Positions 37,178 to 41,585 of a DNA stretch of 64,000 bases are shown here, in pieces. The notes under the pieces are model-generated. The model was given only the letters and a program-made list of their open reading frames with translations, had not been told where the DNA came from and did not search any database. The position numbers and the translations under genes were made by a program. How positions within the stretch are numbered: position 1 is the stretch's first letter; each line of letters begins with the position of its first letter. Source of the stretch: Candidatus Kaiserbacteria bacterium (GTDB lineage: Bacteria > Patescibacteriota > Minisyncoccia > Phycocordibacterales > UBA918); the NCBI GenBank assembly GCA_016699245.1, contig CP064968.1:835042-899041 (forward strand), in the 5' to 3' direction.

Positions 37178-37879
37178 TTGTATGTATATATGAACGAAGA
37201 AAAAATACCACAGTGTGTCGGGTTTATTATGGACGGGAACCGTCGCTGGGCAAAAGCGCAGGGTCTTTCGACTCTTGAAGGACATGCCCGCGGGTACGAA
37301 CAGATGAAACGTATCACTGACTCTGTATACAGTGCCCATATACCACACATGGTGTGTTACGCGTTCTCAACGGAGAACTGGAAACGCACCGAAGAAGAGG
37401 TGGGTTACTTGATGCGCCTTCTTGAAAAGGCGATACACGAATTTCCCGATTTGCTTAAGCAAGAAGGGAAGCAGGCAAATATCCGTGTCATAGGTGAGCG
37501 TTCACACCTTTCACAGGGCCTCCAAAACGCTATTTTTAAAATGGAAGCGAGGAATGTGAAGTCTCCACAGCTTACTGTTTGGATTGCACTTTCATACGGA
37601 GCACGTGCCGAGATAGTGGACGCGGTGAATCGTGCGCTTCTTATAGGTACCCCGGTGACCGAAGAATCCTTTGGAGACCTTTTGTGGACTAAGGGCATGC
37701 CCGACCCCGATCTCATTATCCGCACAGGTGGGGAAAAACGTTTGTCCAATTTTCTCGCATGGCAATCAACATACAGTGAATTCTTTTTTGTCGACACACT
37801 ATGGCCGGACTTTGGAGAATCTGAGTTTCAGAGTATTCTAGAACAATATGCTAAACGAAAACGCCGTCACGGTGCCTGA
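37178..37879 (+). CDS. uppS: Undecaprenyl diphosphate synthase
   Basis: GFIMDGNRRWAKAQG and the cis-prenyltransferase C-terminal region. Confidence 0.9.
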   Translation: MYVYMNEEKIPQCVGFIMDGNRRWAKAQGLSTLEGHARGYEQMKRITDSVYSAHIPHMVCYAFSTENWKRTEEEVGYLMRLLEKAIHEFPDLLKQEGKQANIRVIGERSHLSQGLQNAIFKMEARNVKSPQLTVWIALSYGARAEIVDAVNRALLIGTPVTEESFGDLLWTKGMPDPDLIIRTGGEKRLSNFLAWQSTYSEFFFVDTLWPDFGESEFQSILEQYAKRKRRHGA

Positions 37880-38603
37880 TATTGAAGTCCTCTATGAGGA
37901 TGACGATTGCGTGGTGATACATAAGCCATCAGGCCTTGTAGTGCACGAGGATGGGAGGAGTGGAGAGCCGACGGTGGTGGATTGGCTTCTTGCCCGCACG
38001 CCACAGGCGCGCGGAGTGGGGGAACCTGGTCTTGCACAAGACGGCACTCCTCTCAAGCGCTCGGGCGTAGTACATCGCTTGGACAGAGATACTTCTGGAG
38101 TACTTATTCTTGCAAAAACACAAGAAGCATTTCTTTTTCTTAAAGAGCAGTTTCATGACAGACACGCACAGAAGGAGTATCGTGCATTTGTATACGGAAC
38201 GATGAAAGAAAAGTGGGGTACTGTTGATCGCTTTATCGGGAGGAGCAACAAGGATTTTCGTTTACGCTCAGCAGAGCGTGGTGCGCGTGGTACGCTCAGA
38301 GAAGCAAGGACAGACTGGGAACTCATTGGCCAAAATAGCACCCATGCGTATCTTAAAATTACCCCAAAGACCGGCCGTACACACCAGATTCGTGTCCACT
38401 TACGCTCGATTGGGAGACCGATTGTGGCCGATACGCTCTATGCAACAGAAGATACGCGGGGGAAAAGTAACCTTGGCTTCAAAAGACTCGCTCTCCACGC
38501 TCACCGTATTACCCTTACACTTCCCACCGCCGGCGAACGCACTTTTATAGCGCCATTACCCCCCGATTTTATCGAGGCGGCCGACGGTATTGCGACCGCA
38601 TGA
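37848..38603 (+). CDS. RluA-family pseudouridine synthase
   Basis: VVHRLDRDTSGVLILAKT catalytic Asp motif. Confidence 0.85.
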   Translation: MLNENAVTVPDIEVLYEDDDCVVIHKPSGLVVHEDGRSGEPTVVDWLLARTPQARGVGEPGLAQDGTPLKRSGVVHRLDRDTSGVLILAKTQEAFLFLKEQFHDRHAQKEYRAFVYGTMKEKWGTVDRFIGRSNKDFRLRSAERGARGTLREARTDWELIGQNSTHAYLKITPKTGRTHQIRVHLRSIGRPIVADTLYATEDTRGKSNLGFKRLALHAHRITLTLPTAGERTFIAPLPPDFIEAADGIATA

Positions 38604-38684
38604 TTCCTGTGTTAAAGTACAGCACGTTTTAAAATCTAGTATTAGAAACGCGGATTTAGAGTAGTAACCAGTATTAATCGTATT

Positions 38685-39314
38685 ATGAATACAGCAATAG
38701 CAGGAATCACAATTTCTTCCGTCAACATGGAAGATCGCAAGAACCTTGATATCAAGGCGGGGGACATCGTGCGTGTTCACCAGAAGATTGAAGATAAGGG
38801 CAAGACACGTATCCAGATTTTTGAGGGACTCGTACTTGCGCGCAAGCATGGTGCTGAGGCAGGTGCCACCTTTACCGTACGAAAGGTTGTTGATGGAATT
38901 GGTGTAGAAAAAATCTTCCCACTCTACTCTCCACGTATTGATAAGATTGAGATTGTACGTCGCAGTACAGTCCGTCGTGCAAAACTCTACTACATCCGCG
39001 AGAAGGTTGCGCGTGAGGTTAAGCGCCAGATGCGTCGCATGCGCCTCATGAATGTGTCTTCAGAGTCTGAAATTGAAGTGAAGGCAGATCGCGACCGAAA
39101 GGCTGCAGAGGAAGCAGCAGCAAAGGCAGCTGAGGAGGCTCGCCTCGCAGAGGAGGCAAAGGTACAGGCTGAAGCCGAGGCCGCACTCAAGGCAGCAGCA
39201 GAAGCAAAGGCCGCTGCAGAAGCCGAAGCAACACCCGCTCCTGAAGTGGTAGCAGAAGTAGTTGCAACTCCCGAAGTAACAGCAGAAACTGTAACCCAGG
39301 AGGAGACTAAATAA
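38685..39314 (+). CDS. rplS: 50S ribosomal protein L19 (bL19) with a roughly 90-aa Ala/Glu/Lys-rich C-terminal extension
   Basis: N-terminal 115 aa collinear with bL19 (GDIVRVHQKIEDKGKTRIQIFEGLVLARK...). The tail is EAAAKAAEEARLAEEAKVQAEAEAALKAAAEAKAAAEAEA... Confidence 0.85.
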   Translation: MNTAIAGITISSVNMEDRKNLDIKAGDIVRVHQKIEDKGKTRIQIFEGLVLARKHGAEAGATFTVRKVVDGIGVEKIFPLYSPRIDKIEIVRRSTVRRAKLYYIREKVAREVKRQMRRMRLMNVSSESEIEVKADRDRKAAEEAAAKAAEEARLAEEAKVQAEAEAALKAAAEAKAAAEAEATPAPEVVAEVVATPEVTAETVTQEETK

Positions 39315-39344
39315 GTATTTGGAATTGGAATGAAAAACGCGCGC

Positions 39345-39376
39345 CCCTACGGGGCGCGCGTTTTCTATTTTCATTG
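39345..39376 (+). terminator. Rho-independent terminator after rplS
   Basis: aaaaacgcgcgcccctacggggcgcgcgttttc. Confidence 0.8.
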
Positions 39377-39439
39377 ATTGATCAAAAGTGCATACATTAA
39401 TTGGTAGACGCTATATACTTGAGATAAAATTATACTGAT

Positions 39440-40108
39440 ATGGGATTACGAGGCCCAAAACCAAAAGGAAAAGTACACATCGAGTGATCATCCGATTTTG
39501 CGTATGCAATAGGCTTGCTGGTATCTGATGGAAATTTATCACCAGATGGACGCCATATTATTTTTACATCTAAGGATATTGAACTCATTATTCTTTTCCA
39601 AAAAGCACTCGACATTGAGGGGAATATCGGAAGGAAATCAAGTGGAACGATGAAGGAGAAAAAGTATTTTGTGGTGCAGTTTAGCGACGTGCTCTTCTAT
39701 ACGTTTCTAGTGAGTATTGGACTAATGTCCAATAAATCAAAAGTTATAGGTGAAATAGCCATCCCAGAAAAATATTTTTTTAACTTCTTGCTCGGCTCAT
39801 TTGATGGCGATGGTTGCACGTACTCATATTTTGACCCTCGATGGAAGTCTAGTTTTATGTTCTACACCGTGTTTGTTTCTGCAAGCAAAGAACACATACT
39901 TTGGATTCAAAGAGAAGTTTTCAGTCGCTTAGGTATTAAAGGTCATATTACAGGTGGCACTAAAAAACAGTGTTTCCAACTTAAATATGCGAAAGCAGAT
40001 TCGTTATTGTTGTTGAGAGCAATGTATACAAGTATTGATACCCCTTGTCTTATGCGAAAACGCTTGAAAATAGAAGAAATGTTGAGTACAATTGCCGAAC
40101 GTCTTTAG
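39440..40108 (+). pseudogene. LAGLIDADG homing endonuclease (two-motif, single-chain) interrupted by an in-frame TGA at 39485-39487
   Basis: Motif 1 DFAYAIGLLVSDGNL and motif 2 FLLGSFDGDGC are in one frame with ATG 39440 (MGLRGPKPKGKVHIE-TGA-SSDFAYAIG...). The ORF track restarts at TTG 39515. Confidence 0.65.
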
Positions 40109-40139
40109 TAGCGTATTTACGTTCTCTTGACAAAGTGTC

Positions 40140-40221
40140 GCCCAGGTGGAGAAATTGGCAGACTCACTACCTTGAGGTGGTAGCGCCGCAAGGCATGCAG
40201 GTTCAAGTCCTGTCCTGGGCA
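40140..40221 (+). tRNA. tRNA-Leu (anticodon GAG)
   Basis: Acceptor GCCCAGG/CCTGGGC, anticodon stem CTACC/GGTAG, loop TTGAGGT, long variable arm, T-loop TTCAAGT, discriminator A. Confidence 0.8.
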
Positions 40222-40243
40222 CAAAAGCGATAAAAACGACCAG

Positions 40244-40271
40244 ATTAGTTTCTGGTCGTTTCGCTTTTGTA
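40244..40271 (+). terminator. Rho-independent terminator after tRNA-Leu
   Basis: aaacgaccagattagtttctggtcgttt. Confidence 0.6.
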
Positions 40272-40322
40272 ACCCATCGCTCGATTATCTCCTCAGCACA
40301 ATATGCTACTATTTATATACAT

Positions 40323-41585
40323 ATGCATGAGAAAAAAAATGTGATTCTTCAGACTATTATTGCAGTGGCAATAATAGGGGTTGTTATCGCTATTGCGATG
40401 ACGTTTATGTCCAGTAATAAAAAAGTTAAAACACCACCCACAGAACAAAGCACTGAAACAAAAGAGCCAACACAAAATACCAATGATATTGTTGCAGGTG
40501 TATACAAAGACAGTATTCTGCGTAGCACTGATAGTGGTTTAAATTTTGAAAACTATTTCAAAATTGCAACAACGACAAATGCAAAGATTGGTATTGCAGA
40601 CGTGCTTAGTATTGCCTTTCATCCTGACACCGAAAACCGCATTGTGGTTTCTACCTATGATGATGGCCTGTTTTTAAATAATGAACCAGTGAATAGTTGG
40701 AAGCAGATTAGTTTCCCTCCGAAACAAATCTATAGTTTTATTCTCGATAAAAAAGACCCCGATAATCGAGCATTCGCTTCAGGAGTTGTTTCGGGAAATG
40801 GACGTATATTTAGAACTGATACCCAAGGTCAAGCGTGGCGCGCAGTATACGCGGAGCCTGGTGTAGACACCTACATTTCTGCACTTGTGCAGAATCCACA
40901 AAATGCAGATGTGGTGCTTGCTGGTTCAAGTGTGGGTACGGTGGTGCGCAGTGTAGATGGAGGAGATACCTGGAAAAATATTGGTCAGAATATTAAAGGA
41001 TACATCAGTGATTTCACCTTTGATAGTTCGCGTGCCTCATTTGTATATATGCTTGTGAGCAAAGGGAAAATATACCACTCTACTGACGGGGGGCTTACCT
41101 GGCTCAATTGGGAAGAGGAAAAAACAAAAGAGGTAAAGCGAATAAATGAGGAAGCTTCTGCACTTACACGAGCAGGAAATAAAGAGGGTGGAAAAAAAGT
41201 AAAAGCATCGGCCACAGCACTCCTTGAACGCAATAAAACAGAGAAGGCACCATCAGGACCAATTTTCATTATTGCAGATCCAAATACTTCTGGAACGGTG
41301 TACCTCAGTGCATCTGCTGGTATATATCGCAGTACTGATTATGGAAAGTTTTGGAAGCCAGTAAATATTATTGAAAGTGCATTGAAGTTCTCGATACCTT
41401 CTATAGCAATCAATCCAAATGATTCAAATGAGATTTCATTCGTGGCAGGCAAGACATTCTACCGTTCCATAAACGGGGGAGCGACGTGGGCAATTACCCC
41501 GCTCGATAACAGTCGTAATGCATCATTTGTGGCATATGACCCTTACGATCCCACCATTATCTACATTGGTACGAGTGCAAAGTAA
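40323..41585 (+). CDS. Membrane-anchored BNR/Asp-box repeat beta-propeller protein
   Basis: N-terminal transmembrane helix. Repeated S-x-D-x-G-x-T-W boxes: STDSGLNF, SVDGGDTW, STDGGLTW, STDYGKFW, SINGGATW. Confidence 0.75.
   Translation: MHEKKNVILQTIIAVAIIGVVIAIAMTFMSSNKKVKTPPTEQSTETKEPTQNTNDIVAGVYKDSILRSTDSGLNFENYFKIATTTNAKIGIADVLSIAFHPDTENRIVVSTYDDGLFLNNEPVNSWKQISFPPKQIYSFILDKKDPDNRAFASGVVSGNGRIFRTDTQGQAWRAVYAEPGVDTYISALVQNPQNADVVLAGSSVGTVVRSVDGGDTWKNIGQNIKGYISDFTFDSSRASFVYMLVSKGKIYHSTDGGLTWLNWEEEKTKEVKRINEEASALTRAGNKEGGKKVKASATALLERNKTEKAPSGPIFIIADPNTSGTVYLSASAGIYRSTDYGKFWKPVNIIESALKFSIPSIAINPNDSNEISFVAGKTFYRSINGGATWAITPLDNSRNASFVAYDPYDPTIIYIGTSAK

Follow-up and report, generated by a model that had tools for sequence, protein, structure and literature searches.

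An in-frame TGA in a free-standing LAGLIDADG endonuclease gene next to tRNA-Leu(GAG) in a Candidatus Kaiserbacteria genome

Homing endonucleases encoded by free-standing genes, which spread by intronless homing, have been described in the T-even phages (SegF, SegG, and SegB in the transfer RNA, tRNA, gene cluster of T4; PMC3984707). The gene considered here is found in the genome of a Candidatus Kaiserbacteria bacterium (GenBank assembly GCA_016699245.1), in a stretch of 64,000 nucleotides (nt) of contig CP064968.1 (positions 835,042 to 899,041 of the forward strand), which is called the window throughout and to which all coordinates refer unless another locus is named. It is a LAGLIDADG homing endonuclease gene of 222 codons (39440..40108, + strand), which is broken at codon 16 by an in-frame TGA and is set between rplS, the gene of ribosomal protein L19, and tRNA-Leu(GAG). 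As in the Seg systems, the endonuclease gene stands outside introns and inteins, seems to have its own promoter, lies between conserved genes and by a tRNA gene, and is present in some relatives and absent from others, the target being presumed to lie in the conserved neighbour of the alleles that lack the gene. The Seg enzymes, however, are of the GIY-YIG or HNH type and are encoded in phage genomes, whereas here a single-chain LAGLIDADG protein is found in the chromosomes of Patescibacteria and is known from sequence alone. By analogy, the behaviour of the gene would be closest to that of the free-standing endonucleases of the T-even phages, SegB in particular. To our knowledge, neither a promoter of the neighbouring tRNA within the endonuclease coding sequence nor a tRNA-like upstream element is known from the Seg systems.

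With respect to the protein, the best comparison is with the archaeal enzymes I-Tsp061I (2DCH) and I-DmoI, which share with it a size of approximately 200 residues, the two LAGLIDADG helices and both catalytic acidic residues, but are only 14-20% identical to it and are encoded in introns of ribosomal RNA (rRNA) genes rather than by a free-standing gene next to a tRNA gene. Within the candidate phyla radiation (CPR) bacteria, or Patescibacteria, LAGLIDADG genes have been found in rRNA insertion sequences and group I introns (PMC11270868), and tRNA genes of Patescibacteria contain group I introns (PMC13011429). The phylum and the enzyme superfamily are the same and highly conserved RNA genes are again targeted, but those elements interrupt rRNA or tRNA genes, from whose transcripts they are excised, while in the present case no ribozyme is detectable and the tRNA is uninterrupted. 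In the survey of tRNA introns, tRNA-Leu(GAG) is not among the cases reported, the tRNA introns of Patescibacteria encode no LAGLIDADG protein, and position 37/38 is not a site of insertion (PMC13011429).

The fate of selfish genes of this type has been described by a cyclical model of invasion, degeneration and loss (Goddard and Burt 1999; Gogarten and Hilario 2006, as cited in PMC3984707). Every stage of such a cycle is encountered at the site discussed here, with the difference that the deletion is incomplete and leaves a promoter-bearing 3' tail, which is not predicted by the classical model. The life cycle of a homing endonuclease can thus be followed through all of its stages at one chromosomal site of cellular bacteria, across Patescibacteria. 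Within an incomplete coverage of the literature, no published description of an endonuclease cassette between rplS and tRNA-Leu(GAG) was found, and the strict location by tRNA-Leu(GAG), the tRNA-like element upstream and the tRNA promoter in the coding tail look new as features of a family.

The endonuclease and its premature stop codon

The frame opens at ATG 39440 and closes at the TAG of 40106-40108, and its translation reads MGLRGPKPKGKVHIE*SSDFAYAIGLLVSDGNLS...FDGDGCTY...AERL*. The initial annotation, which was made from the letters alone, had placed a TGA at codon 16 (39485-39487) and both LAGLIDADG motifs in frame, and translation confirmed it on both counts, the motifs reading AIGLLVSDG, with D30, and LLGSFDGDG, with D124; the annotated end coordinate of 40221 needs correction, as it falls in the tRNA and the open reading frame (ORF) itself ends at 40108. 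When codon 16 is bridged, the protein matches the Pfam family PF14528 (LAGLIDADG_3) with 28 bits against a cutoff of 22.5, and no NCBIfam model matches it. The frame is not a chance ORF, because 3841 database homologues were found (best E = 9e-143). The best 120 of these 3841 are nearly all of approximately 222 residues and 63-87% identical, and those among them that bear names belong to Parcubacteria, Paceibacteria and Kaiserbacteria. In an alignment of 103 members of the family 41 columns are invariant, including those of Trp16 and of D30, G31, D122, G123, D124 and G125, and the window copy keeps both acidic residues, D30 and D124. An AlphaFold2 model calculated on the family alignment (predicted local distance difference test, pLDDT, 90.2; predicted template modelling score, pTM, 0.87) has a single-chain LAGLIDADG fold with the pseudo-dimeric alpha-beta-beta-alpha-beta-beta-alpha arrangement, the two LAGLIDADG helices being formed by residues 18-30 and 110-123. 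The best Foldseek match of this model is I-Tsp061I (2DCH, E = 7.7e-12), followed by an intein endonuclease domain, I-AniI and I-DmoI; there are 128 PDB matches at E <= 0.001, and those listed are all LAGLIDADG proteins (endonucleases, an intein endonuclease domain, a maturase and WhiA). The best match by sequence among PDB entries is also 2DCH (E = 0.0023). By motif, profile and predicted fold the protein is a LAGLIDADG homing endonuclease, with an activity that is predicted, and the window copy, with its TGA at codon 16, lacks the intact ORF of such an enzyme.

In all 85 related loci that were read at the DNA level the aligned codon is TGG, from which the TGA of the window (39485..39487, + strand) differs by a single G-to-A transition in the third codon position. 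The nearest relatives (loci L089-L092) are 96% identical in the protein and 95.6% in the DNA of the gene, carry TGG and have the same gene order; their flanks are 92% and 87% identical to those of the window. That the TGA departs by one base from every relative, in an ORF that is otherwise perfect, is what would be expected of a sequencing or consensus error with TGG as the true codon and the gene intact, and the genome probably stems from a long-read metagenome project. However, the assembly of run SRR11674051 repeats the TGA in a Logan contig, L001, that is 100% identical to the window over 1309 nt, errors of long reads are mostly insertions and deletions and not G-to-A substitutions, and the lineage has further private non-synonymous changes in the endonuclease gene. 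An error is accordingly considered very unlikely, and, because a second assembly carries the same codon, the TGA is probably real.

The top database match, P0001, is a protein that is 100% identical and has Trp in the position of the stop, and the only contig from which it derives is L001. It was discarded as an intact homologue: the DNA of L001 has TGA, translation with table 11 does not yield P0001, and its 'W' goes back to gene calling with code 4. Stop codons can be hidden in this manner when a public protein collection contains code-4 translations. The same call, for which the gene caller of Logan had read UGA as Trp, might be taken in favour of programmed recoding or of an altered code with UGA read as Trp, Gly or selenocysteine, as might the reassignment of UGA in some other lineages of Patescibacteria. 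The use of stop codons in the window contradicts this explanation. In a greedy set of non-overlapping ORFs (table 11), which comprises 67 ORFs and covers 86% of the window, TAG ends 30, TAA 27 and TGA, the rarest, 10, among them uppS and rluD, the lengths of which are conserved in relatives (251 residues for rluD). None of the eight tRNAs of the window, which covers 64 kb of the 1,054,716 base pairs of the contig, has a UCA anticodon, and no other interrupted ORF was found in it. The TGA is not followed by a hairpin resembling a selenocysteine insertion sequence (SECIS), the fold of the 66 nt from the TGA having a z-score of 0.57 relative to shuffled sequences, and the homologues carry Trp at codon 16, not Cys or selenocysteine. 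Altered codes (tables 4 or 25) were ruled out by stop-codon usage and a SECIS or other recoding signal by the fold z-score; on the basis of these two results and of the tRNA set, both code reassignment and selenocysteine were set aside. The opinion that reassignment of UGA was unlikely, expressed when the stretch was first read, holds, TGA being a normal stop in the window, and recoding or an altered code is effectively refuted for the window.

A leaky allele should also be considered, in which the TGA is real and near-cognate decoding by tRNA-Trp(CCA) would give a low level of full-length protein, the endonuclease being down-regulated rather than dead. Misreading of UGA by bacterial tRNA-Trp is established, and UGA is the stop codon most often so misread; the mutated codon encodes Trp, so that readthrough would restore the native sequence. 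Moreover, the remaining ORF, both catalytic Asp residues and both predicted promoters are intact, and TGA is the rarest of the stops in the window (10/67). On the other hand, no stimulatory structure follows the stop, a U after UGA makes a comparatively efficient termination context in Escherichia coli, and the other genes of the window that end with TGA are of normal length. In addition, the nearly invariant Pro97 is changed, which suggests that constraint was already relaxed, and a TGA at codon 16 is found in none of the 85 relatives. A leaky allele is, on balance, unlikely.

The explanation that we consider probable is a recent TGG-to-TGA nonsense mutation at Trp16 of a mobile, free-standing LAGLIDADG gene, which would make the window copy a young pseudogene at the first step of decay, with a predicted loss of function. 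The initial annotation had left the choice between a recently decayed pseudogene, a sequencing error, and readthrough or recoding, and the first is favoured by the loss of an invariant Trp, by the change of Pro97 and by the presence of other stages of decay in relatives. When the changes are polarized with L092 and the outgroups L002 and L087, the branch leading to the window carries approximately five non-synonymous changes (W16stop, P18S, L91V, P97S and E111K) and 6-8 synonymous ones. Pro97 is at least 90% conserved in the family and nearly invariant, and P97S, with the other private changes, hints at relaxed constraint. Some observations weigh against a dead gene: the proportion of approximately five non-synonymous to 6-8 synonymous changes is only mildly raised and not significant; the ORF is intact apart from the stop; readthrough of UGA by tRNA-Trp would restore the wild-type residue, so that some full-length protein could be formed; and L001 may share its sample with the genome, in which case a systematic error or a minority allele would be possible. 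The stop itself, as the ordinary early pseudogenization of a selfish gene, is less informative than the biology of the family around it.

What is annotated in GenBank is an ORF of 197 amino acids that starts with TTG (39515..40108, + strand; QQR64778.1 / IPH92_04450). This remnant is entered as a hypothetical protein and not as a pseudogene. TTG 39515 is the only open start downstream of the TGA, it corresponds to residue 26 and has no visible ribosome-binding site. Since this start is inside the first LAGLIDADG helix of the model, the truncated protein would be unlikely to fold, and a functional product from it appears unlikely. Exact look-ups of the window rplS and of this 197-residue ORF in the contig index gave no match.

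Occupancy and decay of the site among relatives

A first set of loci was collected through the endonuclease itself and is, therefore, conditioned on the presence of the gene and biased. In this set the endonuclease gene is followed by tRNA-Leu(GAG) after 0-56 nt, usually with rplS upstream, in many candidate phyla. Taken by itself it would speak for a vertically inherited, domesticated host gene, e.g. a regulator or a maturase, whose function the TGA had abolished, as the gene looked universal in these loci, 53-87% identical, almost always intact and always by tRNA-Leu(GAG). A second set was collected through rplS in metagenome contigs, and the loci with enough sequence were counted. Approximately 40 of them have rplS followed by tRNA-Leu(GAG) without the endonuclease gene, as compared with 10 that have the gene, so that the occupancy of the site is approximately 20%. 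Among the empty loci are L093, L096 and L098, in which rplS shares 87-95% identity with the window gene. Thus, rplS to tRNA-Leu spacers that lack the endonuclease, the search for which had been proposed in the initial annotation, do exist in relatives and identify the gene as inserted.

Among the filled loci for which the sequence is available the gene is found 0-56 nt upstream of tRNA-Leu(GAG), with the exception of L039, in which the tRNA is 709 nt downstream. The tRNA-Leu(GAG) neighbour is kept in nine loci where rplS is not upstream, and for this reason the site specificity is considered to be tied to the tRNA-Leu(GAG) side. The similarity of the endonucleases follows that of their hosts only poorly (Spearman rho: endonuclease versus rluD, 0.23; endonuclease versus rplS core, 0.10; rplS versus rluD, 0.61). 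Loci L010 and L011, for example, have 95% identical rluD and 64% identical endonucleases; the window and L073 share 92% of rplS and 55% of the endonuclease; and, at an equal host distance from the window, the endonuclease of L002 is 86% and that of L073 55% identical. An attempt to map conversion tracts between L010 and L011 found flanks that are 81% identical and downstream regions that are not syntenic. As judged from these sequence comparisons, the history of the endonuclease is decoupled from that of the host, which points to horizontal spread and to a mobile rather than a host gene.

These data bear directly on domestication, which is highly improbable: approximately 80% of the related loci lack the gene when sampled by rplS, decayed and deleted copies exist, the similarity of the endonucleases is largely decoupled from host similarity, and the catalytic Asp residues are kept, unlike those of domesticated proteins of the WhiA type, WhiA being only a distant match of the fold. 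The idea of a vertically inherited domesticated gene was dropped after the rplS-anchored sampling and the rho values.

Decay of the gene is seen to different extents. One of the 10 filled loci, L110, is in an advanced state of decay and contains three stops as well as frameshifts. L087 and L088, of 87% protein identity, have a 1-nt deletion at codon 12, a second, independent disruption of the N-terminus in the clade, which probably represents decay, but of a kind that could be suppressed, like UGA at a Trp codon. In L087 (365-445) and in L088 the deletion falls within AAG GGA AAG, followed by TAA, giving a G_GGA_AAG heptamer, at which the consensus N-terminus would be regained exactly by a -1 slip of the ribosome. 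In L141, L123 and L154 the endonuclease gene is lost and only its 3' tail is left. The one site, therefore, shows every stage: empty, intact, with a single hit (the window and L087), with multiple hits (L110) and deleted (L141, L123 and L154).

The tRNA promoter and the tRNA-like element

The tail that survives deletion contains a predicted promoter, P2 (TTGAAA-N17-TACAAT, 10 of 12 matches; 40064..40092, + strand), which lies within codons 209-218 of the endonuclease. Of the 82 distinct filled loci, 71 have a promoter with at least 9 of 12 matches within the 110 nt that precede the tRNA, as opposed to 16 of 246 control segments inside the ORF. The codons concerned are unusually uniform: Leu209 is TTG in 56/60 sequences, while in eleven other conserved Leu positions TTG is used in 10-44%; Lys210 is AAA in 87%; Ile217 is ATA in 38/41; and codon 216 ends with T in the great majority. 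The P2 hexamers are held by synonymous-site constraint. In L141, L123 and L154, which score as empty loci, the last 50-60 nt of the endonuclease gene, P2 included, lie directly upstream of the tRNA, and a profile of the 3' end of the gene finds these three tail remnants at E = 3.4e-10, 1.5e-6 and 1.1e-4. The promoter is also kept in the decayed L110. In the window tRNA-Leu(GAG) begins 31 nt past the stop codon of the endonuclease, and no terminator was found between the two. Most likely, then, P2 is a sigma-70-type promoter, as predicted from its sequence, that drives tRNA-Leu(GAG), in which case the tail could not be lost.

At the empty sites a promoter and a leader of 7-44 nt precede the tRNA, and this region is missing from the filled ones. 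In the closest empty loci the promoter reads TTTGCA-N17-TAGAAT and in many others TTGAA(A/T)-N17-CATAAT. The comparison of filled and empty loci delimits the cassette between the rplS terminator, directly 3' of which is its left limit, and position +1 of the tRNA, its invariant right neighbour. Close to the right limit, many cassettes have a conserved TTGACAAA (40128-40135 in the window), which precedes tRNA +1 by 5-7 nt and in some cases holds the TGA stop of the ORF. None of the empty loci that were inspected showed it directly before the tRNA, and it lies too near the tRNA to be the -35 box of a tRNA promoter.

At the other end of the cassette, just upstream of the ORF, there is an element of 24-27 nt that resembles tRNA-Leu (AATTGGTAGACGCTATATACTTGAG in the window; 39399..39423, + strand; consensus AATTGGTAkACGCTATnnCCTTGAGGT). 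It copies, with one extra base, the stretch of tRNA-Leu(GAG) that runs from the D-loop into the anticodon loop (approximately positions 14-39), and the likeness stops at about position 37/38 of the latter loop. The median score of the element against tRNA-Leu(GAG) is 14 and the maximum 20, as compared with non-Leu tRNAs, which score no more than 9, and with shuffled sequences, whose 99.9th percentile is 11. There is one copy in the 64-kb window and one copy, never two, in 75 of 92 loci; in 39 empty loci the element is absent, save for two weak matches. Thus, it belongs to the cassette. It overlaps the promoter-like site P1 (TTGGTA-N18-TAAAAT; 39401..39430, + strand), whose -35 hexamer is within the element and whose -10 hexamer ends 9 nt before the ATG, with no Shine-Dalgarno sequence visible in between. 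A -10 hexamer at 16-19 nt from the TTGGTA or the TTGAGG of the element was found in 45 of 74 distinct loci, and which of these two would be the plausible -35 hexamer varies with the lineage. Promoter function alone would be insufficient to explain the element, because the whole 24-27 nt are conserved whichever hexamer is used.

Two precedents from phage endonucleases may be relevant here. In the 'endonuclease-gene invasion' described for I-TevII, the sequences that flank the ORF resemble the target of the enzyme (PMC3984707). The element shares with the I-TevI and I-TevII cases a target-like sequence at the promoter or flank of the endonuclease, its 27 nt overlapping the -35 hexamer and the spacer of P1; as compared with I-TevII, only the upstream flank resembles the tRNA and the downstream one does not, and binding by the protein is putative. 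Autorepression through an operator is known for I-TevI. The leading ideas, as suggested by the sequence, are that the element would bind the endonuclease as a target-like operator or that it may be left over from the founding insertion. It was rejected as a general promoter motif, as it is found at the endonuclease/tRNA-Leu locus only, and no consistent pattern between element and tRNA supported the proposal that a T-to-C change in the D-loop of the tRNA confers immunity on filled alleles.

The presence of a tRNA-like element made it necessary to consider an intron or a split tRNA. The initial annotation had described the ORF as free-standing with no intron or intein host apparent, and this holds: the ORF begins and ends between rplS and the tRNA, it is not embedded in an intron or intein, it has the promoter-like site P1 of its own, and a search of 38600-40400 for intron families, Intron_gpI included, gave no match even at the permissive threshold of E up to 10, so that the group I intron structure that was to be sought in the flanks is not found. 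The flanks themselves, from element to ORF and from ORF to tRNA, measure just 5-56 nt. The description has to be qualified in that the ORF is not free of tRNA context, as the tRNA-Leu-like element of 27 nt precedes it. A group I intron or split tRNA was nevertheless rejected, given the lack of an Rfam intron match, the lack of an acceptor stem in the upstream element and a downstream flank that is unlike the 3' half of the tRNA (position 38 onwards); a match of the window sequence 'TAGTAGCG' to that half is a coincidence. In view of the upstream element, an ancestry in an intron or an insertion is possible.

By taking into account the nearest relatives, the following course of events can be proposed for the window. 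The cassette would have entered the lineage before its split from the L089-L092 group, and the endonuclease would at first have been under purifying selection, as indicated by a gene that is more conserved than its flanks. A TGG-to-TGA transition would then have occurred in the window lineage, with translation ending after 15 residues. The locus would now serve mainly to express tRNA-Leu(GAG), with transcription starting at P2 and possibly also at P1, from which it would read through to the tRNA. Apart from the stop codon the cassette is undamaged, and the host probably depends on part of it. The window copy would, therefore, represent the first step in the cycle of invasion, decay and loss that is usual for selfish genes.

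For the family as a whole, a more tentative proposal, to which we would give somewhat less than even chances, is that it has made part of itself indispensable. The insertion would displace the native promoter of tRNA-Leu(GAG) and provide a replacement within the last ten codons of the endonuclease, so that hosts would be free to inactivate or delete the endonuclease but bound to keep the 3' tail. In addition, the family would carry, at its own promoter, a copy of 27 base pairs of tRNA-Leu(GAG) positions 14-39 as a putative binding site of the endonuclease. This copy would be an operator that mimics the target and allows autoregulation, or else a remnant of the founding insertion at position 37/38 of the anticodon loop, and would in turn suggest that homing is directed at the tRNA-Leu gene. 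The suggested trick for persistence is that the promoter of an essential, probably single-copy tRNA is placed within the endonuclease coding sequence. If the proposal is correct, it would account for the persistence of such gene fragments where genomes are very small, make available a naturally occurring LAGLIDADG enzyme whose candidate target lies in a tRNA gene, and imply ongoing exchange of DNA and homologous repair among uncultured, reduced bacteria.

Neighbouring genes and minor observations

The conserved left neighbour, rplS (38685..39314, + strand), was identified from the ORF list and from synteny in tblastn searches, and the Pfam Ribosomal_L19 model matches the syntenic genes of relatives. 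Its product of 209 amino acids ends with a C-terminal tail of approximately 90 residues rich in Ala, Glu and Lys (39030-39314); relatives have similar, poorly conserved tails. The gene has its own intrinsic terminator, as initially annotated, with a stem of 14 base pairs, 10 of them G-C, followed by a T-run (39334..39364, + strand), and an equivalent hairpin is found in filled and empty relatives alike. Further upstream, the genes for uppS and the RluA-family pseudouridine synthase overlap by 32 nt (37848-37879), as they do in relatives.

On the right, tRNA-Leu(GAG) (40140..40222, + strand) is complete according to both ARAGORN and Rfam, in keeping with its earlier description as uninterrupted, and a terminator-like hairpin (40234..40261, + strand) closes the endonuclease/tRNA-Leu transcription unit. 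The Rfam scan of the whole window at gathering thresholds listed seven tRNAs and missed this one, to which a search of the region alone gave 47.9 bits against a threshold of 29; it looks like an effect of the speed filter on a class II tRNA.

The spacer tolerates other insertions too, as L073, L010 and L117 have an extra gene between rplS and the endonuclease or tRNA. In L073 (3178-3918) it encodes a protein of 246 amino acids with predicted membrane segments, and in L010 (2996-3889) and L117 (3737-4579) an inositol-monophosphatase-like protein. L117 is one of four loci with enlarged spacers (L117, L129, L170 and L139), in which no endonuclease homologue was detected; L129 contains an ion-channel-like gene.

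Finally, two rearrangements were noted in the group closest to the window. In L092 (2870-3005), and also in L089, L090 and L091, a duplicate of the initial 33 nt of the ORF (ATGGGATTACGAGGCCCAAAACCAAAAGG, window-like) is present, followed by a stop and an insert of 109 nt before the real start of the ORF. The insert separates the ORF from P1 and has no match in any of the loci fetched. In L092 (3762-3927), L089 and L090 the last 22 nt of tRNA-Leu(GAG), GTTCAAGTCCTGTCCTGGGCAC, form a direct repeat around an insert of 123 nt with a hairpin, which looks like the scar of an element integrated at the 3' end of the tRNA; the window has one copy only of the repeat.

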